64,000 bases of DNA, from positions 30,415 through 94,414 of IMG/VR virus record IMGVR_UViG_3300025012_000053; one strand, given 5' to 3'. Position numbers and translations under genes: made by a program. Below are positions 1 to 43,598 of this stretch, piece by piece; within the stretch, counting starts at the first letter, position 1, and every line of letters starts with the position of its first letter. Origin of the DNA: a virus. A model generated the notes under the pieces. It saw only the letters and a program-made list of their open reading frames with translations, did not search any database and was not told the origin of the DNA.

Positions 1-67
1 TAGCATTCTGACCACTACCAATTAAAGTAGCTATCAGAAACGAAAATATTAATAGTATCTTTTTCAT
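1..67 (-). CDS. 5' end of a secreted/signal-peptide protein (runs off window)
   Basis: Manual translation MKKILLIFSFLIATLIGSGQNA...; ATG 3 nt after the stop of the 70..633 gene; Sec-type signal with Gln after the putative cleavage site. Confidence 0.7.
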   Translation of the reverse strand, partial: MKKILLIFSFLIATLIGSGQNA

Positions 68-69
68 AG

Positions 70-633
70 TTAGTCAGTTAAATCACCAAGTAAATCCCAT
101 TTATTAGCAGCTCTCTTTATTGCAGTTGCCCAGCCTCCTTTAAAATTGATAGTTGTTGAATCTTTTTTAGCATCTATCACGCTATTTGATTCATAGAATG
201 TCACTATACCCGCATTATCCATACTAAAGTTAAGAGTCGATCCAATCGGGAAATTAACTGTACTGTCAGGGGGTAAGAACACTTTGACCTGAGTTGCTTT
301 GTTGCACCTTATATAAGTATTAAGGTGAGTCAGTTGCGGTCTGAACTCTGTTGTGGTGACAAGTAAAGAATCAGGGTATTTCTTCATTGCTACGTCAAAT
401 AGAGCCAGCTGGTTTACATACGGTATCGTAGGATTCAGTGTGTCGCCTCCCTGATAGTGAGTGATGTTCCCGCCCGATACCTTTGTACTGTCAATCTTAT
501 CGGCTGCTTCTCCTTTCAAAGTGTTTATTATCCCACCCTTGGCCTTTAACACATACTTAAATGTATTAGACCCCTGACCGGATAAAGCACCGACAATCAT
601 AACCGCTATTAAAAAAACCATTAATCTTTTCAT
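70..633 (-). CDS. signal-peptide protein with phage tail-fibre-like C-terminal domain
   Basis: MKRLMVFLIAVMIVGALSGQ signal; C-terminal LPPDSTVNFPIGS...WATAIKRAANKWDLLGDL resembles a common phage fibre tip module. Confidence 0.55.
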   Translation of the reverse strand: MKRLMVFLIAVMIVGALSGQGSNTFKYVLKAKGGIINTLKGEAADKIDSTKVSGGNITHYQGGDTLNPTIPYVNQLALFDVAMKKYPDSLLVTTTEFRPQLTHLNTYIRCNKATQVKVFLPPDSTVNFPIGSTLNFSMDNAGIVTFYESNSVIDAKKDSTTINFKGGWATAIKRAANKWDLLGDLTD

Positions 634-645
634 TTCTTTATTTAT

Positions 646-1416
646 TTAATCCGTTACAATATCCCCAATTACGTTACAATTTAAAACCTGTGTATTAGTG
701 ACTCCTGTATAATGTATTGTCGTGCCACCTGCATTTTCATTTTCAATAGTTAAAGAAGCCCCTCCCGACTGACTAACCCTGCCATCAATCAAAACATTCG
801 CACAACCATTGAACAGAATCAAGTCATCTGCAAGATTACCAGTTATCGACAATCCAGATACCGTTGGGTAAATCGTTACTGATAGCCAATCAGAATTACC
901 AAGATAGCCCGTAGGCTGAAGCGTTGCTTTCGCTATTTCTGTACAGTCATCGATAATCCTTAAAACAATATGACCAGTCTGGTTTCCTGCATTTATATCA
1001 GTGAAAGCCTCCTGTAAAGTAATATAGTCCGGTCCAGTAGTGCCGATGGTGAGTATTGTCGGTACGACACTACCAGAAGTCGCATAGATATTCTCCCAAT
1101 CTGTATTTTCAACTCCGGCATAGCCCGTAGCTGTCAGAGTCTGATCAACATGGTACTCTAAATCTTTAATCCTGTGCCTGTAAACATGTGCCAAATCAAT
1201 TAAAACACTTTCTTCTGTCAGGTCAAGATTAAGAAGCTCCTCCCAATTAGCGCCTGCATCAGATGAATACCATAGTTTGAAATAGCCACCTGCATTGTTT
1301 ATCTCACGTCGATACCAGGTAGATCCGGATTTGAGGGTGTAATACATAGCACTCCACGAAGCACCGGAGGGGCGACCAACTCTTTTAATTCCAATATTTG
1401 TATTAACACCTGGCAT
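646..1416 (-). CDS. putative tail/fibre protein with beta-helix-like C-terminal domain
   Basis: ORF 646..1452; likely start MPGVNT at 1416 avoids overlap with the upstream gene; C-half resembles Bacteroidota secreted-protein repeats. Confidence 0.5.
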   Translation of the reverse strand: MPGVNTNIGIKRVGRPSGASWSAMYYTLKSGSTWYRREINNAGGYFKLWYSSDAGANWEELLNLDLTEESVLIDLAHVYRHRIKDLEYHVDQTLTATGYAGVENTDWENIYATSGSVVPTILTIGTTGPDYITLQEAFTDINAGNQTGHIVLRIIDDCTEIAKATLQPTGYLGNSDWLSVTIYPTVSGLSITGNLADDLILFNGCANVLIDGRVSQSGGASLTIENENAGGTTIHYTGVTNTQVLNCNVIGDIVTD

Positions 1417-1427
1417 GATTATAAGGG

Positions 1428-1781
1428 TTAAATATTCTGATAAAATACCCAAAAGGATCCTGCACGTAATTTAATATGAGTAACAGGATTATCAAAGAGA
1501 ACCCATTTATTATCATTGATATCTACTCCTCCTGATGCAGCTGTAGTATCAGTCTTTGAAATATAGCTTAATCCACTTGCTCCAGTTACATCAACTATAT
1601 CAGCAGTAGTGCCAAGATTACTTTTTATCTCAGTTATTTGTTCTATCTGAGATCCATCAGCATTAGATGTAACTCCTCTAATCTTTCCGAGTCTTGCCTT
1701 AAAGGTCCCGGTCCCAGTAACAAGATCACATCCTATTCCTCCCTGGAGGATCTGTAATGCATTAAATTCATTCTGATTCAT
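1428..1781 (-). CDS. hypothetical virion protein
   Basis: 117 aa beta-rich ORF in a tightly packed tail operon. Confidence 0.6.
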   Translation of the reverse strand: MNQNEFNALQILQGGIGCDLVTGTGTFKARLGKIRGVTSNADGSQIEQITEIKSNLGTTADIVDVTGASGLSYISKTDTTAASGGVDINDNKWVLFDNPVTHIKLRAGSFWVFYQNI

Positions 1782-1792
1782 GGCAATATTTT

Positions 1793-2086
1793 TTAAGTAT
1801 TATATTTTTCCAGTTGTCTGTAAGAATCATCAATGATATCCTGAATGTCCTGTACTGTAAGAACATTATAATATTCTGTTATTGATACATCAGATATTAC
1901 TTCATACCTATAAAGAATCTCGATATACTTTGAGATCATTATATTACGTTCATTAAGTTCTTTCAGGAATATAAAGTTACCTGTATGATATGCAAAGCTT
2001 TTAGAAAGATCCAATCCAAGCCTTGAATGTAATAGTTGTATCGTTGCGATATCACTATTTAATTGTGTTTGACTGAATGCTTGCAT
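1793..2086 (-). CDS. hypothetical protein (small helical, tail region)
   Basis: 97 aa ORF collinear with operon. Confidence 0.6.
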   Translation of the reverse strand: MQAFSQTQLNSDIATIQLLHSRLGLDLSKSFAYHTGNFIFLKELNERNIMISKYIEILYRYEVISDVSITEYYNVLTVQDIQDIIDDSYRQLEKYNT

Positions 2087-4427
2087 TTATCAGTAAATTA
2101 TCTTCAACTAATTTATCAAGAATATACTTAATATCAATATCTTCTGTTATCCAGCGGATCAATAAATCTCTTTCTGCTATAGGGTTATGATGACTTGACG
2201 GACGAACATTTTTCTTCTGAAAATAATGACTCTGTTCAGATTGAAAAAATGTAAAGCCGGAGATGATTATCTCCTTGAATCCCATCCATCTTGCCAGGGC
2301 AATAGCCATTATCCCTACAGTAGGAAATGCTTTTATCTCTTCTGATACATATCTAAACACTTCCGAAAACTCTTCATTATCTCCATACATCCAGACAACA
2401 TTACCCATCTTAATAAGTTTCTCTCCATTATCCAGCCAGAACTCATGCATCTTCTTAGCATCAGTATACTTCTGATACATTGTTTCTGATATAGGAAGAA
2501 TTCCAAGAATAGGATAATCAACTTTATGGTCCGGAATAATTTCATGATAGAGACTGGATATATTAAGATCGATCCTGGATCCTATTTCCGGAAACCCAAG
2601 TTTAAAGTTATTACATCTCATTACAAAAGAATCATCAATCTCTTTTGATAGGTCTGTTTTGAATGGTCCATTACCAATAACTGAACAAGATGTTTTACCA
2701 CTGATGATCTTCTGTACTTCCCTTCTGATTATTCTATCATATTCCAATGGTTTACTTATAATATTCATCTTGTCTTTAAATCTTCTGGATGCCTGGTTAT
2801 GTATTATAACAGGCTTATCACATTGCAAGTATTTATTGTCTGCAATATGAATATACTCTTTTGGAAGATCAACGATCTTAACCCCCTGTAATCCTTCCAT
2901 TACTGCCTGAAAGTTTATAGCATCGGGATTATTGTTTTCAGAATTAAGAACTGTCCATCTGTTAATCACTTCCCGGGAAACAGTATTGTTTTTAAAGAAC
3001 ATGGTACCTGTCATCTTCTCATTCCACTGCTTAAGATAATGAAATGATATATCGCAATCGACAGTATAGAAGAATTCCGGCATTGCAAGTATCTCAGCAT
3101 CGGCATCGATCCAGATAACATCCTTCTTATACTTGTCCATTACAGATTTAAGGACCTGTGGTTTCATCTGAGTATTCTTCTCCCAGGATCCCTGATGACG
3201 AAGACCAACTATCTCATATGGAAGACCAAACTTATCAAGACTTGCTTTAAGGACTTTTACCTCTTCTTCATATGGAGTATCTGCAGTAAACATACTTACA
3301 TAGACAATATCATTACGTCCCGTGATCTTGCCTTCAAGCTTTTGGTTTATGAACTTAAGATTTTCTTCATTCTGTTTTCGAATATGATCAGCCACACCAG
3401 ATTTCTCTTTTACTATTAGTGCATGCTTCTGTGCTGTTTCATATTCACCCATCCAGTAATAACAGATCCCAAGTTCAAAGTCTGCCAAGTATGATTTATT
3501 TGTAGCATGAATAAATAATTTATCATTTACAGGATAATCCATCCTTAACACTTCTTCCTGAAGTAACCGGGCCATATGATATTTCTTCCGTTCTCTATAG
3601 ACAAGGCCAAGCAGATATAATGCCTCAAATCTTGAAGGACGGAATGAATAAGCTTCAATAAGCTGAAGAATGGCACTATCCATACTTTTAAGATGATATT
3701 GCATTACAGCTATCTGAAATAAGGAATAATATACTTCTTCCGGCCAGCCACCTCGTTTTGCTCTTTCCTCGTAATACTTTATGGCTTTATCATATTCCTT
3801 CATGTTGGCATATGTCTGTGCCAGGTAAAAGTAATTACGTGTATCGGATGGATTATCAATGATTGCCTTTTCAAGAAGATCGCGATCCCTGGTTAACTTC
3901 TCACTTCGTGTACCACCATCAGCATGATGTATTACTGCAAGAGATCTTAACTCAGGACTCTCCCCGCAATTCTCTCCATTAATATATTCATGTGTTACTC
4001 CAATATATCTGAATTTCTTTCTACCTGATATAAGTAAGATCTGTGCAAAATCAAGATCTCCCATGTATCTTAAATGATACCAGTCATATTTCAATTGTGA
4101 TTTGTCAAATAGATCTGATACTTTATATTCAAAGTCAGCATCGGCAAGAAGAAGATAATCTGCTTTATCATAGGCAAGAGCCATGAGCTCTGATCTGTTA
4201 TGTCCGAAGTTAACCCAGGGTCTTGCATGAAGTTCTCCTTTTATCCCGGCATCTTCCATTACATCAACGATTATCTTCTGTGTTTCATCAACAGATCCTG
4301 TATCAATAATAACATAGTAATCAATAAATGATTTACAGCTATCTATCATTCTTGCAATTACTTTCGCTTCATTACGAACTATTGCACAAAGGCATATTGT
4401 TTTTTTATCATTCATTTCATTTGTCAT
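2055..4427 (-). CDS. multi-domain glycosyltransferase: GT2 + TPR + nucleotide-diphospho-sugar transferase + GT29 (sialyltransferase)-like domain
   Basis: GT2 motifs ICLCAIVRNE, IIDTGS, LADAD, HEY; TPR repeats (YFYLAQTY, EVYYSLFQIA); second GT-A domain VIWIDADA; C-terminal CSVIGNG..IDDSFVMRCN, PTVG, HYF, HHNPIAE resembling sialylmotifs L/S/III/VS. Confidence 0.8.
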   Translation of the reverse strand: MTNEMNDKKTICLCAIVRNEAKVIARMIDSCKSFIDYYVIIDTGSVDETQKIIVDVMEDAGIKGELHARPWVNFGHNRSELMALAYDKADYLLLADADFEYKVSDLFDKSQLKYDWYHLRYMGDLDFAQILLISGRKKFRYIGVTHEYINGENCGESPELRSLAVIHHADGGTRSEKLTRDRDLLEKAIIDNPSDTRNYFYLAQTYANMKEYDKAIKYYEERAKRGGWPEEVYYSLFQIAVMQYHLKSMDSAILQLIEAYSFRPSRFEALYLLGLVYRERKKYHMARLLQEEVLRMDYPVNDKLFIHATNKSYLADFELGICYYWMGEYETAQKHALIVKEKSGVADHIRKQNEENLKFINQKLEGKITGRNDIVYVSMFTADTPYEEEVKVLKASLDKFGLPYEIVGLRHQGSWEKNTQMKPQVLKSVMDKYKKDVIWIDADAEILAMPEFFYTVDCDISFHYLKQWNEKMTGTMFFKNNTVSREVINRWTVLNSENNNPDAINFQAVMEGLQGVKIVDLPKEYIHIADNKYLQCDKPVIIHNQASRRFKDKMNIISKPLEYDRIIRREVQKIISGKTSCSVIGNGPFKTDLSKEIDDSFVMRCNNFKLGFPEIGSRIDLNISSLYHEIIPDHKVDYPILGILPISETMYQKYTDAKKMHEFWLDNGEKLIKMGNVVWMYGDNEEFSEVFRYVSEEIKAFPTVGIMAIALARWMGFKEIIISGFTFFQSEQSHYFQKKNVRPSSHHNPIAERDLLIRWITEDIDIKYILDKLVEDNLLINASIQSNTIK

Positions 4428-4488
4428 CTTCCTGTCTCTTTAATTAATACTTTAGTATCTCCATAAAACCAAAGGTAGATTATTTATT

Positions 4489-5460
4489 TTAATTTGTAGT
4501 TACAGATATTCCTTTTGCAATCAAACTATTTTTAGCAGTTATTCCTGCACCTGTTGGCGCAGCATTAGTTCCACCTTCAAGATAAATAAATCCCATTGTT
4601 TTAGTGGAAGCATCTATTTCTATAAGTATGTTATTTATATCGGCTGCAAGTATAATATCATTTTCTCGTGCATCAATTTGTATTGACAGCGATAAATCCC
4701 ATTCGCTATGTGCTTCAAGCGTGGCTAATCCTGCATCATAAACATTTATTCGATAAAAATCAACCCATGCAGCAAATGTAGTTATTGCACTTATCGGACA
4801 ACTCGTAAGTTCTATACTCTGAATATCTACCCATGCTGCATAAGTACCTCCAATATTGACTAAACCATAATTATCATGTAAGTTTATGTTGATTATTTTT
4901 ATCCATTCAGGTCTAAGAACAATTGCTGTAAGTAAATTTTCACTTGCTCCAAGAACTTCCAATAACACCCATTCTGCATGAGTAGCAAGTGTTATTAACT
5001 GGTTGATATCAAGGGTCAGGCTTACTAAATTAACCCATGTGGCATAAGTATTGAATGATGTCAAAGCATTATCCCCTGCTGCAAAGATCATCAGATTTAC
5101 CCATTCAGGATAGGTTTCAAATGATGTAAGTAAGTTCCCCTGAACATTTATCTGTTCAATATTAATAATTGTACTTGGAATGAGGATATCGGTTATATCC
5201 TGATTAGGTGCAGAAATATGCGTGATCACAGTAGCACCGGATATAATTACAGTCCCTCCTCCTATATAAAAATGATCTACAGTAACATTACCCATTCCTA
5301 ATAATGTTACTGTCTCTAAAATAGAACCATCCGTCCAATCAATAATAACATTTCCTAATCCTTGTAAGTCCATACTAAATGTACCAACAATAGATGTTTC
5401 AATAATAATTTTTATACCTCGAAATCTTGTCAATGATCTGAATGTACAACCTTTTCTCAT
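4489..5460 (-). CDS. leucine-rich-repeat-like virion/adhesin protein
   Basis: ~22-aa repeats NxLTSFxTYxxWVNL; C-cap INNILIEID...NAAPTGAGITAKNSLIAKGISVTTN. Confidence 0.65.
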   Translation of the reverse strand: MRKGCTFRSLTRFRGIKIIIETSIVGTFSMDLQGLGNVIIDWTDGSILETVTLLGMGNVTVDHFYIGGGTVIISGATVITHISAPNQDITDILIPSTIINIEQINVQGNLLTSFETYPEWVNLMIFAAGDNALTSFNTYATWVNLVSLTLDINQLITLATHAEWVLLEVLGASENLLTAIVLRPEWIKIININLHDNYGLVNIGGTYAAWVDIQSIELTSCPISAITTFAAWVDFYRINVYDAGLATLEAHSEWDLSLSIQIDARENDIILAADINNILIEIDASTKTMGFIYLEGGTNAAPTGAGITAKNSLIAKGISVTTN

Positions 5461-5462
5461 AA

Positions 5463-7313
5463 CTATTGTGTATATGGTCCACCTTTATTAAACCAGAAAG
5501 CACCACTCTCATCATAAAGGAATGCTAACAGATCCCTGTCATTAGGACCTGTATCAAAAGCAAATCCTGCCTCAGTATAATATGTTCCTGTAAGAGACAA
5601 GACATGATCTCCTGTATTATCCTGGATTATCTTTAAATTACCCTGATCTCCACTTACTACATTTGATATTATAAGAGTACAATCCTGAACAAGAGTAAGC
5701 TTTGCATTATATCCCTGCGTTACATCCCAATGAATTCCTGCTGTAGCATTATCAAGAATGATAAATGTCTTTGGCGCTTCTGCAGGTCCTGTAGGACCAG
5801 TACTACCAACTCCTGTTGCACCTGTAGGACCTATTGATCCTGTAACACCAGTTGGTCCTATTGCTCCCTGTGTGGCAAAAACTACAAGATCAACCCTCGA
5901 TACTCCCACAACACCTGTACCGGAATATCTCCTCATCCTTCCCTTAACATTATATGTTCCGGCAACAAGTGATGATGATCTTTTAACAACAGGGATAACG
6001 ATATAAGTAGGAGTGGTAGTAAGATAGGCAAATACCTCATCGGTATCAACACCATTGATCTGAAGAGTTAATCCTATTACTGAAGCACCACCGGAAACAA
6101 GTTCACATTGACAATTCATAATAGCCATTATCTCAACAGTAGATTCAAGAGTTATTGATGTTGTCACTCCTGTAATATCTATGAGTGTTGCTGAAGTGGT
6201 AGTTCTTAATGTCTCCATCTCGACAAATGAACTTGGGATCTTTCCCGCTACAGCATCAGCCCCTGCAGCACCAGTAGGTCCGGTTGCTCCTACAGCACCT
6301 GTCGCTCCATCTGCACCTGTGACACCCGCACCTGTGGGCCCTACTGGACCAGTGATTGAAGGTCCTGTTGGTCCAATGGATCCGGTTACACCATCAGCAC
6401 CTGTAGGACCTGTTATACTTGACCCTGTCGGTCCTGTAGCTCCGGTAGGTCCAGCAACAGTAGAATCTGCACCGGTTGGTCCGGTTGATCCTGTAGGTCC
6501 TGCAGGACCAGTAGCACCAGGTGAATATGCTCCACCATAAAGATTTATAATCCAGTCTGAATACGTACCTGATCCTGTATGGTTAACAGAAACCATAGAT
6601 AACTCTCCTGAAGCTGCTGTATAATTTACTACAGTAGCACGGAATAGATTATTAATATCATAAGCAACAACAATATCCTGTCCTAATGTAAATGCTCTTC
6701 CTGTAGAACATATCATATCTATTCCTGTAGGATGAGTTGTTGGAAGTGTTTCTGTTCCAGTAGATGTAGATGCAAATCTATCGGCATATCCTGTTGGACC
6801 TATTGATCCTATTGGTCCTGAAGGTCCTGTTGGTCCTGCCACTGTTGAGTCAGTGCCCGTTGGCCCTGCATTACCTGTTAATCCTATTGGACCAGTTGCT
6901 CCTGTAGAACCAGTTGGACCTGTATTCCCATCTGCACCTGTCGGACCAGTATCTCCTGGTATTATTGATGCGGCTCCTGTCGGACCTGTAGCACCAGTAG
7001 GTCCATCATCTCCTGTATTACCATCAGATCCTGTTACTCCTATAGGTCCTGTTGGTCCTGTAGAACCGGTTGCACCGTCTGCACCTATATCACCTGTTGG
7101 TCCTGATGGACCTGTAGGTCCAGTACCAGAAGATCCTGTTGGTCCAGTCGGACCTGTGGCTCCTATTCCTATAGGTCCGGTAGCACCGGCCACGCTAATA
7201 GTTTCTCCTGTAAGAAGAATAATATTTTTCTTATCATCCCTGGCCGGTTCAATAAATATATTACCACCATCGAGTTGTGGAGAAGGACCTAAGAATTGTG
7301 CACCGGTTGACAT
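5463..7313 (-). CDS. collagen-like (Gly-X-Thr) fibre protein
   Basis: Three blocks of GPT/GAT/GST triplets separated by globular domains; C-terminal phage fibre-like domain. Confidence 0.85.
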
Positions 7314-7429
7314 ATCTTTATTTTATTAATATAATCCAGGTATCATATTTGTTTTTTTCTTAATGGCAGCAAGTTCCGTGCTATTGTCATCCATTTCTGT
7401 TCTTATCTCCACAGCCGTAGGCAAATCAC

Positions 7430-8080
7430 CTAATTGTGTATCAAGGTTTCACCACCATATCTACGAGCATTACCAGCCTTGAACCAATCTATATAAGTAA
7501 GCCCGATGACTGTCGTTCCATATTGACGTAATGTAGTAGTTCCTGTCGTACTGCCACTACTTGTACTACAATCAACCGCAGAAGCCTGTAAAACTCCATT
7601 TAAGTAAACATCAACGACCCCAGCAGCTTGCATAGTCCATACAAAAGTCCACTCTTGCCAAGTATCCTGTTGAACTAAATCAGCACCTACCTCGTTCCAT
7701 GCTGCACCATCATAAACATATAGTCCATCAGAAGCCCAACGAATACCAAGATAGTAACTTGTAGCATAACAAAGAAGTTCAAAATAATCTGAATTAGCGA
7801 GTGTTCCTAAAGTGTCATGGTATAGTTTAATTGAAATAATATTCGGGTTTGTTTGATATGAACCTATGTCAAGAGTACGGGAAGCTAAGTTACCAGCACC
7901 AGCAGCAACAACATCCATTTTAAAACAACTCTTGGAATCAAAGAAAATCTGTGAGCTCACACCTGTTCCTGTATCGCCATCTGTTGTCCAATCGACAATA
8001 TCAGCGCAATCCTCATCCTTGATTGTACCACTTGAGAATGTTAATTCGTCTAAATACTTATTTTCGGTTATTATTGACAT
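7430..8080 (-). CDS. lectin/concanavalin-like beta-sandwich virion protein; probably continues to 7326 across a 1-nt frameshift
   Basis: WQEWTFVW...VDVYLNGVL LamG-like motif; the -1 frame 7448..7326 continues with a phage-like sequence. Confidence 0.55.
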   Translation of the reverse strand: MSIITENKYLDELTFSSGTIKDEDCADIVDWTTDGDTGTGVSSQIFFDSKSCFKMDVVAAGAGNLASRTLDIGSYQTNPNIISIKLYHDTLGTLANSDYFELLCYATSYYLGIRWASDGLYVYDGAAWNEVGADLVQQDTWQEWTFVWTMQAAGVVDVYLNGVLQASAVDCSTSSGSTTGTTTLRQYGTTVIGLTYIDWFKAGNARRYGGETLIHN

Positions 8081-8083
8081 TTT

Positions 8084-8470
8084 CTATGAATATGTTACGC
8101 TCGTTAAATCATCTCCTGTAAAACCAAATGTTTTTGTAAGACTTATTCCTGAAGGGGTGTCACCTGATAAAACAAGGCTTGTTAGAACGCCAAGAGTATA
8201 ATTAAATGTCTTTACTATTTCAAGACTACCACCAAGATCATAAGTTATATAGTCAATATCATCACCATTATAAGTTATCACATAAGGATAACTTTTAAGA
8301 TTTTTTGACACTGTTTCAAATGCTTCTGATAATCCACTTACAGATCCCCATTCAACATCATAATCTACTGTTCCTTTTTTCTTAATAATCTGACCAATAG
8401 AACCACCTTGTGGAAGAGTATTCTTATAATTCTTAGAATATCTTATTTCTCCAATAGGTTCTCCTGACAT
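8084..8470 (-). CDS. hypothetical virion protein
   Basis: LPQGGSIGQIIKKK..DYDVEW phage fibre linker motif. Confidence 0.6.
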   Translation of the reverse strand: MSGEPIGEIRYSKNYKNTLPQGGSIGQIIKKKGTVDYDVEWGSVSGLSEAFETVSKNLKSYPYVITYNGDDIDYITYDLGGSLEIVKTFNYTLGVLTSLVLSGDTPSGISLTKTFGFTGDDLTSVTYS

Positions 8471-8475
8471 GATAA

Positions 8476-9240
8476 TTATAAGTTAGGGTCAACATCATAA
8501 AAATCAAGTATCTGATCTATCTCTCCCTGTATTGTTGTTAATGCAGTAAGATTGGATGAACTGATAGCACTCTTTAATGAACTGAGAAGTCCCCAGGCTG
8601 TAAGAGCATCATCAAGATATTTCTTTCTTGTATTTCCGGGCACCATCCTTGCAAGATTAGAAAACATCTTATCAACTCCTGCTTCAGATCTACAATATAC
8701 ATAAGGATAGAATGTACTTTTATATTCTCTTGTACCTGTACATGCACCATCATTTGCTACCCAGGTATCAGCAATATAAAAGTTATTTGCATCAATCTTG
8801 GTAACAAGATGTTCTCCATTATAACTTGTTGATCCGGTAATATCAACATACATACCACCAGTTAATCCATGTGTAGCAGCTGTTACTTTTACTGTTCCAT
8901 TTACGGTAGATCCATAATTTGAGAATGCAGATATGGTAAAGTCACCAGTCTTAAGCTTATAAACAATATTATGAAGTCCATCCTCGCTTGTACCCGTAAG
9001 ATCATCAAACCACCAGGTACCTGTTACCGGATCAGGTATCTGACTAAGGATATCATATTCATCTGATGCTACCCCGGAAGGATTTATTATTTGAATTATG
9101 GCAGAAGTCAATGTCCCTGGATCCAACCCTGAAACACCACTCCATTTTGTCCCATCTCCTGTATCAACACCAGTCTTGTCCTGTATGCTGAACTTAGTAC
9201 AACGGGTTACTACTTTAAGATCAAGATCTGGCGTAAACAT
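8476..9240 (-). CDS. virion structural protein with inserted beta-barrel (THGLxxGxxVxI) module
   Basis: VTAATHGLTGGMYVDITGSTSYNG motif common in phage tail proteins. Confidence 0.55.
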   Translation of the reverse strand: MFTPDLDLKVVTRCTKFSIQDKTGVDTGDGTKWSGVSGLDPGTLTSAIIQIINPSGVASDEYDILSQIPDPVTGTWWFDDLTGTSEDGLHNIVYKLKTGDFTISAFSNYGSTVNGTVKVTAATHGLTGGMYVDITGSTSYNGEHLVTKIDANNFYIADTWVANDGACTGTREYKSTFYPYVYCRSEAGVDKMFSNLARMVPGNTRKKYLDDALTAWGLLSSLKSAISSSNLTALTTIQGEIDQILDFYDVDPNL

Positions 9241-9272
9241 GACTTATCTGTTTTAAATTGATTAATAAATTC

Positions 9273-9308
9273 AAAAAAGGGGAAGAGAAAATATCTTCCG
9301 CTTCCCCC
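9273..9308 (-). terminator. intrinsic terminator
   Basis: GGGGAAG/CTTCCCC stem followed by T6 on the minus strand, after the 9337..10644 gene. Confidence 0.6.
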
Positions 9309-9336
9309 GATTTGAAATATGGCAGATAAGCGGTTA

Positions 9337-10644
9337 TTATACGCCTATTGAACTTGTCTGTGTAGTATAAGCCTGAAGTATATCAGAGATAGTATCAGGT
9401 GGTTCTCCATTGGAGAATCCTGTTTCAAGGGCAACAAGAAGTTGTTTCAGTCTCCTTGGCGCTCCACCAATACCTCCGGTAGTAACATCAGTATAATAAC
9501 TGACCGACATTTGATCATACATCTTTCCTGATGTAGCAAGGGCCCTGGCAGCTGTCCACATGAAGTCTCCGGCATAGGCATTACCATCATTACCAAGGAG
9601 TCCCCATTCCAGTTCAGCTATCTGTTCATAATTACCCTGCCCAAGAGTCATAGCAGTCGTATAGGTAATAGGTGTTGTTCCAAATGAACTTGATGTATCA
9701 AGCCCTATCAGAAATGATACTTTTGAGAATGGAGTTTTCCCAACAGAGAATGCCCTGGCAACACCAGAGAGTTTAATACCAAGATCAGCAGAAGCCATCT
9801 TGGCAGCGGTAAGAACCGTGCCTGCAGCCTTCCCTGCAGCTACTGCCGAGAAACTTTCTTCCTCAATAGGTCTGTCAACCTTGAACACGGTAGTTGAGGT
9901 AAGCTCCTCGACCCTGTATATACCATCAGTGACAAGACACCCGGTTACTGCCTGTGCATCAGAAAAACGAACATAATCACCTACAGCCAGGTCCACGTTG
10001 GTATTATAATCAGTATTAGTACCGCATGTTACATATTTTTCTCCTTTAACAAAGGTTACTGTTCCAGCAAAAGCAGCTGTAGCTGCATAAGCAACATCAG
10101 AAATAAGTTCAGCCTGGATAGGAACAACAGCCTGCCTGCGAAGAGTACGACTCAACTGCTGAACAAGACCAAGAGCAACCTCAAGTTGTGTAGCCGAAGC
10201 ATCACTCTTGTAAGCTGAATTGATTATCATTTGTTGTCCGATACCTGTATAATCCTGTTCTTTCAGAGAAAGTCTTACGACATACAGTTTGCTGTTTGCT
10301 ACTTCAATCTCACCTGAGGTACCATTATACCCGATATAGGATACCTGTTCTGCGGCTGCTACATCGACCTGTGTTTTGAACGCGAGGATATTGGCCTGTT
10401 TGATAAGATCACTCTGGATCAGATCGGTACCATTACGGAGAATGAGTTTAATTCCAGATTCTGCAACAATGTCATCAGTAAGCACTGATGTTGCGCTAAG
10501 AACCATGTTGTGGGCATTACATACGGCGATCTCACCATCAGTCAGTCCTGCATAGGTGGATATTACGCCGTTAATGGCAGTAGTTGGAGTTACTGCTCCA
10601 AGGTCCTTGCCGATAAACAGTTGCATTACATCATTTTGTGTCAT
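9337..10644 (-). CDS. crAss-like conserved structural protein (auxiliary capsid protein-like)
   Basis: EQVSYIGYNG...YVVRL and C-terminal GNYEQIAELEW..GNDG pattern; position downstream of MCP/ring genes. Confidence 0.55.
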   Translation of the reverse strand: MTQNDVMQLFIGKDLGAVTPTTAINGVISTYAGLTDGEIAVCNAHNMVLSATSVLTDDIVAESGIKLILRNGTDLIQSDLIKQANILAFKTQVDVAAAEQVSYIGYNGTSGEIEVANSKLYVVRLSLKEQDYTGIGQQMIINSAYKSDASATQLEVALGLVQQLSRTLRRQAVVPIQAELISDVAYAATAAFAGTVTFVKGEKYVTCGTNTDYNTNVDLAVGDYVRFSDAQAVTGCLVTDGIYRVEELTSTTVFKVDRPIEEESFSAVAAGKAAGTVLTAAKMASADLGIKLSGVARAFSVGKTPFSKVSFLIGLDTSSSFGTTPITYTTAMTLGQGNYEQIAELEWGLLGNDGNAYAGDFMWTAARALATSGKMYDQMSVSYYTDVTTGGIGGAPRRLKQLLVALETGFSNGEPPDTISDILQAYTTQTSSIGV

Positions 10645-10668
10645 GTCTTTGGAATTTAAAATTTATAA

Positions 10669-10926
10669 TTATAATAATTGGTTCTCAGAGTTCCATAAGA
10701 ATCCTTTGTACTTTGTACCATTCTTGATAGCTTTATTGATATTGGTTTTATCAAAACCTTTATCTATTGCTTCTTCCAATGATTCAAAGATCTCAACGAT
10801 CTCACCTGTCTTTGGATCTTTTGTAGCTATCTTTGTTTTTTCAACAACTGGTTCTTCAACTTCTATAGAGACTTCAGGGATATATCCCTTGGCTTTCTCC
10901 CTTGCAAGTATTGCCCTGTTTTTCAT
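10669..10926 (-). CDS. stand-alone NUMOD1-like HTH DNA-binding protein
   Basis: EIFESLEEA...NINKAIKNGTKYKGFLW. Confidence 0.6.
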   Translation of the reverse strand: MKNRAILAREKAKGYIPEVSIEVEEPVVEKTKIATKDPKTGEIVEIFESLEEAIDKGFDKTNINKAIKNGTKYKGFLWNSENQLL

Positions 10927-33305: not shown

Positions 33306-33506
33306 TTAACTCATTGAATAATTAAAGATTCTTTTCTTTCCGCTTCTTCTCCTTCTGATAGTAGTTCCATTATGAATGATACTATAGAGGTTATCATTAT
33401 GATCGAAATAAGATATAGAAGTTGCAATAAGATTCATAAACTGAATCTCCTCTACACACTGATAATAGTACTGTCCTGCCTCTTCTATGTAATCAATCCT
33501 TATCAT
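33306..33506 (-). CDS. hypothetical protein
   Basis: 66 aa ORF in operon. Confidence 0.5.
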   Translation of the reverse strand: MIRIDYIEEAGQYYYQCVEEIQFMNLIATSISYFDHNDNLYSIIHNGTTIRRRRSGKKRIFNYSMS

Positions 33507-33856
33507 TTTACTTCTTTAAAAAAATCATCAAATCCACTACCATCTCTCTTATCCGGCTGCCTGGTTTCTCTCCGGACTTTAACTTGCTCAGATTGCTTTA
33601 TATGTTCAATAGGTCCGGTATTATCGTTACTTCTTACTTCTCGTCTTTCGATTCGTCCGACTTTCTGTATTCGTTGTTTTCCCCGGACCAGATCTGAACA
33701 TCCACAGATTACCGATTCATCAACATAGAGTACATTACCATTAATGAACCAACCTCGTATCTTGTTATACGATATACCTGAAAACTCTTCCAGGGCACGG
33801 ATGTTTGTGCTCTGGATGAATCTCCGGGTTTGTATTTCGTAGTAAAAAAATGTCAT
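33503..33856 (-). CDS. putative HTH DNA-binding protein
   Basis: NIRALEEFSGISYNKIRGWF HTH-like segment. Confidence 0.45.
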   Translation of the reverse strand: MTFFYYEIQTRRFIQSTNIRALEEFSGISYNKIRGWFINGNVLYVDESVICGCSDLVRGKQRIQKVGRIERREVRSNDNTGPIEHIKQSEQVKVRRETRQPDKRDGSGFDDFFKEVK

Positions 33857-35596: not shown

Positions 35597-35630
35597 AACT
35601 TTACACTATGTATTTTTTAATTCATCAATA

Positions 35631-35638
35631 CAAAGATA
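35631..35638 (-). promoter_or_regulatory. Bacteroidota -7 element TATCTTTG driving the leftward operon
   Basis: TAnnTTTG consensus about 35 nt upstream of ATG 35596. Confidence 0.55.
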
Positions 35639-35853
35639 AAACAGAAAATAACAATTTACGGCATGTAAAATGATAAACTTATCAACACACGGCATGTAAA
35701 GTAACATTCCCCTGTACATAAGAGCACCCACCCCTTTATCTGTAAACCCCCGCCGTCTTCAGCTGGTCCCAAAAACACCCCCACCCCACCCTTATTAACA
35801 ATAATTTACAGACCGTAAAGTTATCATTACATTAATTTACACCACGTTAAATG

Positions 35854-35881
35854 AAAAAACCCTTCCATTTCTGAAAGGGTT
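35854..35881 (-). terminator. intrinsic terminator
   Basis: AACCCTT/AAGGGTT stem plus T-run on the minus strand after the 35901..36224 gene. Confidence 0.55.
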
Positions 35882-35900
35882 AGAAACAGTCTTTTAATGA

Positions 35901-36224
35901 TTATTCTTCAAAGAAACAAAAAAACACATCTACCGTTTTTCCATTATCCATGATATAACACTCTGCTTTTGGCAAAATAAGTAAGTCGTTTTTTAAACAA
36001 CGATCTTCATCATATATATTAACTTCGGAGACAGTAAATTTCTGTGTACCTGAAGTTTCTACCATATCGCCAAGAATCCAGGTATCTGAATTCTTTTCTT
36101 TTGTCTTAGCGGCAATACAATGATCGGAACTAAAATATTCCTTATGAACAATTGAATCCCCATTTAGAATGTGGGTTTCTGCCTGACCTTCAAGGTCTGT
36201 AGTGACTACTTTTAATGTTAACAT
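35901..36224 (-). CDS. stand-alone hypothetical protein (moron-like)
   Basis: 107 aa; own TATCTTTG promoter at 36278-36285 and own terminator. Confidence 0.65.
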   Translation of the reverse strand: MLTLKVVTTDLEGQAETHILNGDSIVHKEYFSSDHCIAAKTKEKNSDTWILGDMVETSGTQKFTVSEVNIYDEDRCLKNDLLILPKAECYIMDNGKTVDVFFCFFEE

Positions 36225-36579
36225 GATTTCTGATTTTTAATGATTACTACTAATTCTATTTCGACTGCTTCTAAATACAAAGATAAACAATTAATCCAAA
36301 TAACATTCAATGGCTCCGCGCACATTACACCCCAAACAAGCCGATAAAAACCACTCCCCTATACCTCATGCGACCAGAGAAGCCCCAGGGGGCAACCATC
36401 CTCAAAAAACCAGATGAACGACCTGGATCAATCCCGGGGATATATCAGAACACGCGTAATGCCTCACCAAACCCCGGTATGTCTCTGCTCCGCAGGGCCT
36501 CCCCCGTGGTGCTTCCGCAGGACTCTTCCAAACGGAATATAGATATGGAGGAAAATAATTAAACCAATACATTATTATT

Positions 36580-37011
36580 ATGAATGAAGTTAGTATTAGC
36601 AACTTTGCTAAAGGTATGACAAGTTCACCAATAGGACAAAGGACTGTTTTACCACAGGGAACTCATTACAGGTTTGAGAAGAAAAACAATGATTATAATA
36701 TCATTGTGGAAATTGCACCTAAAGTATGGCAGGCCGTTAAAGATAGTAACGGCAAATTTACTTACTTTGATGCTGTCAGTAAGTCAGAGAAACCAATTCC
36801 AACGGATTCACGTTGGATAATGCTTAACACCGGGTTTGAACAGACAACAAAGAAAACCATTGATACTTCAGTAACTTTGGATTTCAAAGATGTACCGCTC
36901 AAATCAGTGTTAAGAATGAAAGTTACCAATGACAAAGGTTATTCAAGTCTTGATCTTGTACCTTTGACAACTAAGGAACTGAAAGCACTGACGGCAACAG
37001 AGATTAATTAA
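36580..37011 (+). CDS. hypothetical protein, first rightward gene
   Basis: 143 aa; followed by a terminator. Confidence 0.7.
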   Translation: MNEVSISNFAKGMTSSPIGQRTVLPQGTHYRFEKKNNDYNIIVEIAPKVWQAVKDSNGKFTYFDAVSKSEKPIPTDSRWIMLNTGFEQTTKKTIDTSVTLDFKDVPLKSVLRMKVTNDKGYSSLDLVPLTTKELKALTATEIN

Positions 37012-37015
37012 GAAG

Positions 37016-37037
37016 AGGGGAGAAATCCCCTTTTTTT
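37016..37037 (+). terminator. intrinsic terminator
   Basis: AGGGGA-GAAA-TCCCCT followed by T-run. Confidence 0.75.
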
Positions 37038-37252
37038 ATATTATCAGCTGCTTAAGGTTAATTTACATGCCGTAAAGTTATTATTGCATTAATTTACACT
37101 ACGTAAAGTGATATTGTCTCTAATATAATATTAAGGTATACCTTATTATATATAGGTGTGCTTTTTTATTACTATTACTGCTCAAGGCTGATAATGTCAC
37201 TTTACACTGTGTATTTTAATATTATTGTTAATTTACACGGTGTATTGTGATA

Positions 37253-37444
37253 TTAACTAATAATACAAACTATACCTATATATATAGGATATAATTCAGG
37301 ATTGTCTTTTATTAATTGATCCAATTCTGTTTGATTAAGAATTTCCTTTTCAATTAATATACCCTGTTGATTATCAATAAGAATAATATATTTTCTTTCA
37401 ATAATCAATGTTTTCTTTCCTTGTAATAAGCTTTTTGTTTCCAT
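37253..37444 (-). CDS. small hypothetical protein
   Basis: 63 aa; TATCTTTG promoter at 37464-37471. Confidence 0.45.
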   Translation of the reverse strand: METKSLLQGKKTLIIERKYIILIDNQQGILIEKEILNQTELDQLIKDNPELYPIYIGIVCIIS

Positions 37445-37463
37445 GATATATAATATTAGAATT

Positions 37464-37512
37464 CAAAGATAATGCTATTTTTTGTTTATACGGTGATTAT
37501 GCATTATATTTG
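37464..37512. promoter_or_regulatory. back-to-back divergent Bacteroidota promoters
   Basis: TATCTTTG on minus (37464-37471) and TATATTTG on plus (37505-37512). Confidence 0.55.
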
Positions 37513-37769
37513 TGCAGTTGGTCATGTTTAATATAATTGAAATGAAGAGAAAAACACATTATTATGTAGTAATAGATCTATATGATCTACGTAAGACTAC
37601 AATAGAACAATCAAAGATTCAAGTATCTGTAATGGTTGGAAAGCATCGTAATACTATTGATTTTGAACAAGATAACATATATGGACACTATCTTGTTCTT
37701 CCCAGATACATAAAAAGTAGATATATTAATCCACCTCCAGGAAGAATACAAAATCTAATACATAAATAA
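37512..37769 (+). CDS. small putative DNA-binding protein (true start probably MKRKTH)
   Basis: SKIQVSVMVGKHRNTI HTH-like segment; lies within the palindrome array. Confidence 0.45.
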   Translation: MQLVMFNIIEMKRKTHYYVVIDLYDLRKTTIEQSKIQVSVMVGKHRNTIDFEQDNIYGHYLVLPRYIKSRYINPPPGRIQNLIHK

Positions 37770-38256
37770 TTATTAACTTTACACTGTGTAAATTTACATA
37801 TACAACAAAATACACTGCGTAAAGTGATAAATAAGCTGGCTTTTTATTTAATAATATTAAGCAATTATTGTCATATAAGCTGTAATATTATTGACTGGTA
37901 AACAGTGCGCAAAGCGCCATTCTACCTACATTTGATGCTTTTAAGCCTCTGAACAGTATATCTGAGATACCATAGAGTGTTATTGGAGATATATACTCTT
38001 TATGTATCTATCATAAGTATATTATGGATAAAAGATGATATTAGTTAAAATATCTACATTTGTTATTAATTACAATCTACGCTCAGATTATGATACCACA
38101 TGATGATCTTATGAGTCCTGAATGAAAAGGGTGCTGTAAAGTCAGGATAGCAGCTAAAAGATAATTCTCATCCAAGAGCCGGTTCAATCAGGGGTTGCAA
38201 CCTTGTGAGTATTATCTTTATTTAGTCAATAGAATATTAACTTAATATTATATGTC

Positions 38257-38466
38257 ATGAAAATTATTGAAATTACTGATGGCTTTCTCAGTGAAGAAAC
38301 TACTCTTAAAGTGGCTATTACTGAGCTTCTTAAGGAAAGACAGGATACATTTAATAAGCTTAAGAAAGCTAATCCTGCTTTTGTTCCTAATCAGCATTTG
38401 TATATGGCTCATATTAAGAACTGTAAATCATTACTTAAAAAATTAAACAATAAATATATGTCATGA
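38257..38466 (+). CDS. hypothetical early protein
   Basis: ORF with ATGA coupling to the next gene. Confidence 0.55.
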   Translation: MKIIEITDGFLSEETTLKVAITELLKERQDTFNKLKKANPAFVPNQHLYMAHIKNCKSLLKKLNNKYMS

Positions 38467-38669
38467 AAAAACCATTTAACTTTCGTAATGTAGATCCAGA
38501 CAGAAAATGTCTCGATTGTAATGTTCCTCTTAAGCTTAATTTGTTATCTAAGAATCCAAATGCCTTAAGATGTTATACTTGTAATACATTGAAATCCAAT
38601 AATCTTAATATTAATCGTATAAGATTGTTAGAAGTTCAAAAACATAATATACTATCTTATAAGCCATGA
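38463..38669 (+). CDS. small zinc-finger protein
   Basis: CLDC...CYTC. Confidence 0.55.
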   Translation: MKKPFNFRNVDPDRKCLDCNVPLKLNLLSKNPNALRCYTCNTLKSNNLNINRIRLLEVQKHNILSYKP

Positions 38670-38878
38670 CTGCTAAAGACATTAAACTTGCTATGAGTTG
38701 TGAGCATAACTATTTATGGTCATGTAAACATAACTCTTCATATGGCCAGGATTGTACCGGACCATGTAAATACTGTACTTCTATTCAGCTCTTTACAGAT
38801 AGTATTATTTGTCCTATATGTGATAATCCTGTTGAATCAGGCTATTGTGTTAATCTTAATTGTGTTAATCATGGCTGA
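38666..38878 (+). CDS. small Cys-rich protein
   Basis: Multiple CxxC motifs. Confidence 0.55.
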   Translation: MTAKDIKLAMSCEHNYLWSCKHNSSYGQDCTGPCKYCTSIQLFTDSIICPICDNPVESGYCVNLNCVNHG

Positions 38879-40168: not shown

Positions 40169-40293
40169 TACTACACTCTGTAGATTTATTTGCTTTTGTT
40201 ATCTACAGGATGTAATTTTGTTTATGATTTGGGGCTTTACTCATGGTTGGTTTGACAGTATAACCATCTTAGGTAAGTAAAAAACTGTCAAAT

Positions 40294-40366
40294 AGTCCTT
40301 TGGTGTAATTGGCAACACATTAGATTTTGATTCTAAGGAGTTCAGGTTCGATCCCTGAAGGGACTA
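40294..40366 (+). tRNA. tRNA-Gln (anticodon TTG)
   Basis: Acceptor AGTCCTT/AGGGACT, D-arm GTGT/ACAC, anticodon arm TTAGA-TTTTGAT-TCTAA, T-arm TCAGG-TTCGATC-CCTGA; no encoded CCA. Confidence 0.9.
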
Positions 40367-40389
40367 CAAATAATAATATACTCTTAATT

Positions 40390-43016: not shown

Positions 43017-43598
43017 ATGTATGATAACTTATTATATCGTCAGATAAAAGATGTTCCTATTGCTGTTATTCAGGAAAAAGTATCAGAAGCAACAAAAATT
43101 CCTTTATCCTTAATATTACTTGGAAATAAAGCACCAGGAGCAAGGAGAAAAGAATATGTTATGGCAAGACAGATATCTATGTATCTTTCTAAAGATCTTA
43201 CCAGATTTAGTCTCGCTGTCATTGGTGTTGAACATGCCGGCAGGGATCATGCTACAGTATTACATTCAATAAAAACTATTACTAATTTTATCGACATAAA
43301 TGATCATGATGTAACATTGAATGTAAAAAAATCTATAGATCTTATCAGAACATGGAATAATAACAGGCCAGATAAAATAAGACAACCTACCCTTAAAGAA
43401 CTTATACGTAAAAAGAAATATCTTTCTTATGATATAAAGGTTGTTAACGAACAAATCAATGCTTTACTTATGCCTAATATTCCAGGTAAATCTAAACTTG
43501 TTAAAACATGGATCCTTAATAAAGTTCCTCTTGATGTCAGACAAAAACTTCTTTTAATTCTTGTAAATATAAAAAATTATGAAAGCAAAAACTATTGA
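43017..43598 (+). CDS. DnaA C-terminal-like HTH protein
   Basis: RKEYVMARQISMYL...SLAVIG..AGRDHATVLHSIKTI. Confidence 0.85.
   Translation: MYDNLLYRQIKDVPIAVIQEKVSEATKIPLSLILLGNKAPGARRKEYVMARQISMYLSKDLTRFSLAVIGVEHAGRDHATVLHSIKTITNFIDINDHDVTLNVKKSIDLIRTWNNNRPDKIRQPTLKELIRKKKYLSYDIKVVNEQINALLMPNIPGKSKLVKTWILNKVPLDVRQKLLLILVNIKNYESKNY

Follow-up and report, generated by a model that had tools for sequence, protein, structure and literature searches.

Paired palindromic sites at the divergent strand switch of a putative crAss-like phage as a probable operator array

The phage genome in IMG/VR virus record IMGVR_UViG_3300025012_000053 (94,414 bp, estimated to be 97% complete) has a single divergent switch between transcription strands, and the non-coding DNA at this switch carries 15-bp palindromes of the form TTTAC-N5-GTAAA, most of them arranged in pairs. 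What are these sites for? We addressed this question in a window of 64,000 nucleotides, positions 30415-94414 of the record, and coordinates below refer to this window unless another contig is named. Leftward genes, starting from about 35.6 kb, comprise accessory genes, a sugar-modification operon and structural genes. Rightward genes, from about 37.5 kb to 59.7 kb, include those for a DnaA-domain-IV-like protein, RadC and a DnaB-type helicase, along with many small genes. The original prediction, made from the sequence of the window, proposed that the palindromes bind a phage protein cooperatively and act as origin iterons, as the operator array of a genetic switch, or as packaging or partition sites. 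Comparison with related phages favours the operator array among these options. The palindromes are probably operators for a cooperatively binding phage transcription factor that acts at promoters of the host RNA polymerase in the early/late control region.

Sequence, spacing and distribution of the sites

All eleven sites named in the original prediction were recovered at the same positions, and all of them are non-coding. The single site S0 (TTTACACTATGTATT, 35600-35614) lies just downstream of the leftward promoter box, and the other ten form five pairs. Pair A (35655-35669 and 35686-35700; 35655-35700 overall) is upstream of the same box. Pair B (35805/35836; 35805-35850) is located directly past the terminator of a gene for a protein of 107 amino acids (aa), and pair C (37062/37093; 37062-37107), in which both sites are perfect, 22 nt past the terminator of a 143-aa gene. 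Pair D (37201/37232; 37201-37246) lies just past the stop of a 63-aa minus-strand gene and displays GTATT as the right half of both of its sites, while pair E (37778/37809; 37778-37823) begins 9 nt past the stop of the gene for a 75-aa protein. The predicted spacing of 31 bp is exact in all five pairs. Further to the right is a degenerate pair F (40170/40202; 40170-40216), composed of ACTAC..GTAGA and TCTAC..GTAAT at a distance of 32 bp. A weak site (TAAACAGTGCGCAAA, 37899-37913; about 9 bits), which could have arisen by chance, is centred 21 bp upstream of a rightward -7 box, TACATTTG (37927-37934).

The TTTAC-N5-GTAAA palindrome is perfect in five of the eleven sites, and the other six carry one to three outer mismatches (e.g. 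CACAC, AATAC, GTATT and GTTAA). The core AC-R-N3-Y-GT is invariant among the eleven, from which we took WWTACR-N3-YGTAWW as a working consensus. Only four sites have complementary bases at positions 6 and 10, suggesting that the half-sites TTTAC(A/G) behave independently, as fits binding by a protein dimer and not the formation of a hairpin. Pairs B and C display 83-85% identity over 52-60 nt, which bears out the earlier observation that they share spacer sequence, and the 52-nt pair units share one orientation. Pairs D and E form a 48-nt inverted repeat, 79% complementary, around two small genes.

The exact motif occurs five times in the window, against 0.16 matches expected, and nowhere else in the whole genome. 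The relaxed consensus yielded nine exact matches genome-wide, all of them in the control region, against about 1.4 in shuffled sequences, and a leave-one-out weight-matrix scan placed ten of the eleven sites within the top 12 of 94,400 positions. For eleven positions drawn at random in these gaps, the probability of at least two pairs at exactly 31 bp is about 0.003. A chance origin of the sites is excluded, and the motif is restricted to the control region rather than spread over the genome.

Outside this genome, 968 kb of other phage loci held only five stray matches, and the distant crAss-like genome G001 had none. With blastn, the region had no match among 50,697 phage records, and Rfam found nothing credible over 34-40 kb. 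The exact paired pattern was found at seven loci in IMG/VR, none of which has proteins in common with this phage. One unrelated AT-rich phage of 41 kb (G004) has four exact sites within 150 bp (locus L005, 19805-19958), including one 31-bp pair, and it encodes neither a homologue of HTH117, the candidate binder discussed below, nor a DnaA-C-like protein. Several GC-rich phages (L006-L011) carry GTTTAC-N5-GTAAAC pairs 31 bp apart; these share no proteins with our phage and likewise have no HTH117 and no DnaA-C-like protein. Across 596 Gb of prokaryote genomes, the exact paired pattern occurred only 21 times, scattered across phyla, which makes a widespread host regulon unlikely.

Site geometry at predicted promoters

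Close relatives of this phage are rare. The informative ones are G002 (contigs L012/L095, an 18-kb fragment with 60-72% protein identity), G013 (L136, oriented like the window, with 40-82% identity), G007 (65 kb, with G008 as another assembly of this phage) and the more distant G009 (86 kb). Searches of IMG/VR with the 143-aa and DnaA-C-like proteins found no relatives, and those with a 303-aa protein and DUF5131 returned many loci from unrelated or distant phages in which the motif is absent. The motif is kept in L136, G007, L012 and the fragment L103. Intergenic DNA cannot be aligned among the relatives except at the motif, and the 10-mers common to at least three control regions are almost exclusively the motif, -7 boxes and one C-rich element.

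Sites in L136 start at 9542, 9596, 9627, 9712, 9743, 10894 and 10924, with pair spacings of 31, 31 and 30 bp. Those of G007 start at 38698, 38741, 38771, 39879 and 42413/42444, with pair spacings of 30 and 31 bp, and L012 has four sites, including one pair 31 bp apart. Across four phages, 12 of the 13 pairs are spaced by 30-32 bp, about three helical turns. Together with the independence of the half-sites, this supports the idea that the palindromes are cooperative protein-binding dyads on one face of the DNA. The sequence itself varies: the halves in G007 are AATAC/GTATT, so that the strict TTTAC-N5-GTAAA pattern misses its sites, and G009 and L012 have a variant with the outer half CTAGC and an inner half running into TTTG.

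Promoters in these regions were predicted by consensus to the Bacteroidota type, TAnnTTTG. The leftward promoter, P_L, has its predicted -7 box TATCTTTG at 35631-35638 on the minus strand, and pair A abuts this box, as had been noticed before. Measured from the start of the box, the two sites of pair A are centred at -24 and -55 and S0 at +31. The corresponding centres are -55, -24 and +30 in L136 (box TATATTTG), -65, -24, +35 and +66 in L012 (box TATCTTTG) and about -53, -23 and +20 in G007 (box TACCTTTG). Hence, the proximal position (-24 or -23) is identical across the four phages and the second site lies 30-41 bp further upstream, with the same degenerate outer half (nAnAC) at the distal site in three of the four. 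The orthologues of S0 are those at +30, +35 and about +20; in the window, the centre of S0 would fall at about +17 from the predicted P_L transcript start. The first gene downstream of P_L differs from phage to phage, and the conserved part is the module of promoter plus sites.

At the canonical spacing, all four P_L promoters (window, L136, L012 and G007) lack a TTTG -33 element. The G of the box stands at -7 in Bacteroides-type promoters. If the same applies here, the proximal site would be centred near -38, which is the place of the -33 TTTG; in the window, the proximal site of pair A occupies the -33 region of P_L.

A similar arrangement is found at the predicted promoter of the tRNA-Gln gene (40294-40367, plus strand), which lies downstream of pair F. 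In the window, its -33 TTTG (40189-40192) and its -7 box TAATTTTG (40213-40220), at 20-nt spacing, are interleaved with pair F, and the -7 box overlaps the second site of the pair. Pair F is orthologous to a strong pair in G007 (42413/42444, 31 bp apart) with the same placement of both elements: the -33 TTTG is in the spacer and the -7 box TAATTTTG overlaps the second site. In L136, the orthologue of pair B (9712/9743) overlaps a rightward TATTTTTG box, and sites overlap predicted promoter elements in L012 as well. Judged from these sequences, four related phage contigs have kept both the motif and its layout, which is a new observation.

We favour the operator array because four phages have kept the placement of the sites around the leftward -7 box and because the sites overlap the tRNA-Gln promoter in two. 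From this geometry we infer protein binding as well as the sign of regulation. A phage-encoded dyad-binding factor would occupy pairs three helical turns apart, as a dimer of dimers. At P_L, one site would take the place of the -33 element, a second would lie 31 bp upstream and a third just past the predicted start; with such a layout, occupancy must set the activity of P_L. We would read this as repression by occlusion or looping, and activation from -38 is also possible since P_L has no -33 element. At the tRNA-Gln promoter, sites that flank the -33 element and overlap the -7 box would lead to repression. The pairs at gene ends probably either serve as auxiliary operators, raising the local concentration of the factor or looping to P_L, or are duplicates carried along with inserted gene cassettes.

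Palindromes in a phage of this kind could also be promoters of the N4 type, in which a hairpin serves the virion RNA polymerase, or could be bound by a host transcription factor. In the crAss-like phage phi14:2, the virion polymerase transcribes denatured DNA and the early promoters are unknown; the middle promoters, the only ones with a described motif, are often upstream of tRNA genes and are used by the host polymerase (bioRxiv 10.1101/2020.03.07.982082). Although our sites are palindromes, the stem would have only five A/T-rich base pairs around a 5-nt loop, the loop-closing 6/10 pair is mismatched in seven of the eleven sites with no compensatory change, and the sites go together with -7 boxes of the host type. 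N4-type hairpin promoters have a stem of 5-7 bp and a 3-nt loop. In bacterial genomes, the paired motif shows no enrichment. We therefore regard hairpin promoters or host factor sites as extremely improbable. Regulation of host-polymerase promoters by a phage factor fits the data, since the sites are tied to host-type boxes, including that of a tRNA promoter.

Origin, packaging and cassette explanations

If the pairs were origin iterons, an initiator such as a DnaA domain-IV-like protein, acting with the DnaB-type helicase, would open adjacent AT-rich DNA. Some features of the locus would fit: like the iterons of the lambda origin and of plasmids, the sites are repeated dyads near replication genes and, with the reservation given below, at a skew turn. 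The lambda origin holds dyad iterons. Our right arm encodes both the DnaA-C-like protein and DnaB, and in our own reading the half-site TTTACAC can be matched to the DnaA box, but only in its relaxed form TTWTNCACA (positions 2-8). The cumulative GC skew, which had been suggested as a check, does reach its minimum at about 37 kb, but this turn coincides with the switch of transcription strand and is hence confounded. Ori-Finder, skew and coverage led to the prediction of two origins 2.6 kb apart at the strand switch of the prototypic crAssphage (PMC10983915). It is thus plausible that an origin lies somewhere in this region, and nothing ties it to the palindromes.

The arrangement of the sites speaks against iterons. 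Iterons form one compact tandem array beside an AT-rich unwinding element, whereas here separated pairs are fixed to promoter boxes; they are dispersed over 2.2-4.6 kb with 100-1,200 bp and genes between them, and their positions are conserved relative to those boxes. The flanks of the sites are AT-rich, but the whole right arm has only 28-33% GC. DnaA boxes (TTATCCACA-like 9-mers with one mismatch) number 24 in the window against 26 expected and do not cluster in the region. Furthermore, the recognition residues of the DnaA-C-like protein do not follow the motif variants, as described below. These observations make it unlikely that the pairs are origin iterons.

Palindromic sites that are clustered and restricted to one locus might also have a dual or structural role, in which the same complexes of protein and DNA would act as centromere-like partition sites, or as recognition sites of the terminase near the true genome ends. 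Some crAss-like phages have been reported to live as phage-plasmids (PMC10983915), which counts in favour of partition. In addition, the region seems to break assemblies: a contig of the sister assembly G008 ends about 2 kb before the control region and restarts after it, giving breaks on both sides. Against this, G007 assembles straight through the region, neither ParA nor ParB was detected among the 20 right-arm proteins scanned, and neither function explains why the geometry is linked to promoters. Partition or packaging sites are very unlikely on this evidence.

The gene-end pairs raise a further explanation, in which the sites are boundary repeats of mobile gene cassettes or recombination sites, with small genes gained and lost between the 52-nt units. 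A small gene ends ahead of each of the pairs B-E. Between the similar pairs B and C stands a block whose 107-aa gene the relatives lack, and the inverted repeat of pairs D and E encloses two small genes. The 107-aa (35901-36224) and 63-aa (37253-37444) minus-strand genes each have their own TATCTTTG promoter and are missing from both L136 and G007; they have the look of accessory cassettes that were inserted, with a copy of the 52-nt pair unit on either side. However, the surroundings yielded no recombinase, the P_L and tRNA promoter sites have kept their positions without any turnover of cassettes, and the duplication may be a mere by-product of the repeats. It is thus most improbable that cassette exchange is what the sites are for, and we retain the operator array.

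Candidate binders, comparable systems and gene context

Three proteins had been proposed as binders: two small ones, at 33503 and 37512, and the DnaA-C-like protein. The first of these, a 117-aa protein which we call HTH117 (33503-33856, minus strand), is the best supported and is our best guess. All five genomes with the motif encode it, and the distant G001, without the motif, does not. Its 44 homologues are all unnamed. An AlphaFold model based on the alignment of these homologues has a confidence of about 95 for residues 1-55, which are predicted to form two strands, a helix-turn-helix and two further strands; a basic linker, predicted to be disordered, leads from there to a conserved FDDFF tail. 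In HTH117 and most of the homologues, the C-terminus is a conserved acidic-aromatic peptide (RD..FDDFFKEV), reminiscent of the tails with which SSB-type proteins recruit other proteins.

Among solved structures, the closest are the helix-turn-helix of I-HmuI (residues 121-174, Z 4.5) and the DNA-binding domain of I-TevI (Z 3.6), both weak matches, and the Atlas structure neighbours include HNH_3 + NUMOD1 clusters at a TM of about 0.4. Meanwhile, HTH117 has no Pfam match (including NUMOD1, PF07453) and no nuclease domain, and Foldseek returned no significant match. These matches to homing-endonuclease folds are leads and not proof. The putative recognition helix reads YNKIRGW in the window, YHKIRNW in G013 and YHKIYGW in G007, which have the same motif, and YHTLSNW in G009 and YTWLYDR in L012, which have the variant. 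The helix of the window is thus conserved in G013 and almost so in G007, and differs in the two phages with the variant. The neighbouring proteins of L012 are not more diverged than those of G013. That the recognition helix of HTH117 tracks the motif variant is suggestive in these five genomes.

The second candidate is the 75-aa protein (37542-37769, plus strand), which may be a helix-turn-helix protein and probably starts at the ATG at 37542 rather than at 37512. Its homologues are found in G013 and four metagenome clusters, and pair E always follows the gene; L136 has the same order of gene (10716-10889) and sites (10894/10924). However, the protein is absent from G007, which has the same motif, and this weakens its candidacy. 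No helix-turn-helix family was found for it in Pfam, and its model reached a mean predicted local distance difference test score of only 57.8. Between HTH117 and the 75-aa protein, hhalign detected no homology (probability 0.1).

The third candidate is the DnaA-C-like protein (193 aa, 43017-43598, plus strand), with a DnaA domain-IV-like helix-turn-helix. Its score of 60.1 bits for Bac_DnaA_C (PF08299), or 61.7 bits when the genome was searched, exceeds the curated cut-off of 31.5, and it carries an RDH-TVLH signature. It is a possible replication initiator. G000 and G009 agree in the recognition segment of this protein and differ in motif variant; in G007, the motif is the same and the segment differs. 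This is the reverse of the motif pattern.

Several observations weigh against the operator array and against HTH117 as its binder. The promoters are themselves consensus matches, and pairs B-E of the window stand at the 3' ends of four small genes, an unusual place for operators, where they overlap no recognisable TAnnTTTG box. The comparison covers five related genomes, whose shared ancestry inflates the apparent co-occurrence of motif and protein, and G004 combines four exact sites with the lack of an HTH117 homologue. No dimerisation domain can be made out in HTH117, whose closest structural matches are monomeric helix-turn-helix modules of homing endonucleases, and its gene is transcribed from P_L, the very promoter that the protein would control.

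Several known systems offer parallels. As at OR and OL of lambdoid phages, bound by CI and Cro, they are dyads of about 15-17 bp in adjacent groups on one face of the DNA, they overlap predicted core elements of divergent promoters, and clusters about 2 kb apart could loop. They differ in spacing, with 31 bp from centre to centre here against 23-24 bp in lambda. Moreover, no CI/Cro-type (HTH_3/Xre) protein and no lysogeny module were identified here, several pairs are at gene 3' ends without a recognisable promoter, and the promoters are of the Bacteroidota type TAnnTTTG.

A second parallel is protein p4 of phi29, a lytic phage of Bacillus. This small protein binds, as multimers, to imperfect inverted-repeat sites between divergent early and late promoters, where it represses the early promoters and activates the late one beside a missing -35 element. 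Our phage likewise has imperfect inverted repeats in a divergent early/late region, where their function would be comparable, and differs in motif, spacing and type of host polymerase. No homologue of p4 or p6 was noticed, though no search was aimed at either. The third parallel comes from the best structural matches, weak as they are, of the N-terminal domain of HTH117, namely I-TevI (PDB 1t2t) and I-HmuI (PDB 1u3e). The helix-turn-helix module of I-TevI autorepresses via an operator that overlaps a promoter. However, the I-TevI and I-HmuI modules bind asymmetric sites as monomers, whereas the sites here are palindromic.

Other conserved features lie around the sites. The 143-aa gene between pairs B and C (36580-37011, plus strand) has no assigned function and is conserved in the control region of the relatives, where genes of this family are always preceded by a C-rich non-coding element. 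These C-rich stretches (36300-36560 and 35700-35800 in the window; L136:9770-10150; L249:3240-3830; G009:42800-43090) are long and stand within a region of otherwise 30-36% GC. A 16-nt block, TCTGCTCCGCAGGGCC (36484-36499), is identical in three phages and can fold into an 8-bp hairpin with a 3-nt loop. The element may be a structured RNA or a leader, perhaps like the highly transcribed long intergenic regions of phi14:2.

Shorter repeats also recur. AAATAAGCTG (37829-37838) stands directly past pair E and again past the orthologous pair of L136, with AAATAAGCTA in G009, and the palindrome CCTATATATATAGG (37275-37288) recurs as ACCTATATATATAAGG in the control region of G009. In three phages, several small genes of the right arm share a start context, TATATGTCATGA (38230-38263 and 38436-38469 in the window; L136:12089; G007:40415). 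At the other end of the genome, record positions 1-10770 are taken up on the minus strand by a single open reading frame, which exceeds 3,590 codons, continues past the start of the contig and presumably encodes the giant virion protein typical of such phages. Stop-codon recoding was considered for 1-10.8 kb of the genome and rejected in favour of this single frame.

A bolder proposal is that HTH117 is a domesticated helix-turn-helix protein of homing-endonuclease type that binds the paired palindromes as the master switch from early to late expression, its SSB-like tail recruiting RNA polymerase or replication proteins, with the array as both operator set and organiser of replication or transcription. 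We consider this proposal doubtful. If it were true, HTH117 and its sites would be the first defined regulator-operator pair for crAss-like phages, of which we found none in the literature searched.

In kind, the array would be an ordinary phage switch element, and its value lies in giving a concrete handle on regulation in this group of phages. The timing of gene expression in crAss-like phages after the early transcripts of the virion polymerase is largely unknown in the field. Our analysis provides a conserved and sharply defined cis-element, whose geometry is fixed relative to the structural-arm promoter, together with three short candidate proteins. With these, the question of the regulator can be put to a direct test in vitro without a cultured phage. 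For related metagenomic phages, the relaxed consensus and the geometry also offer a means of annotating control regions.

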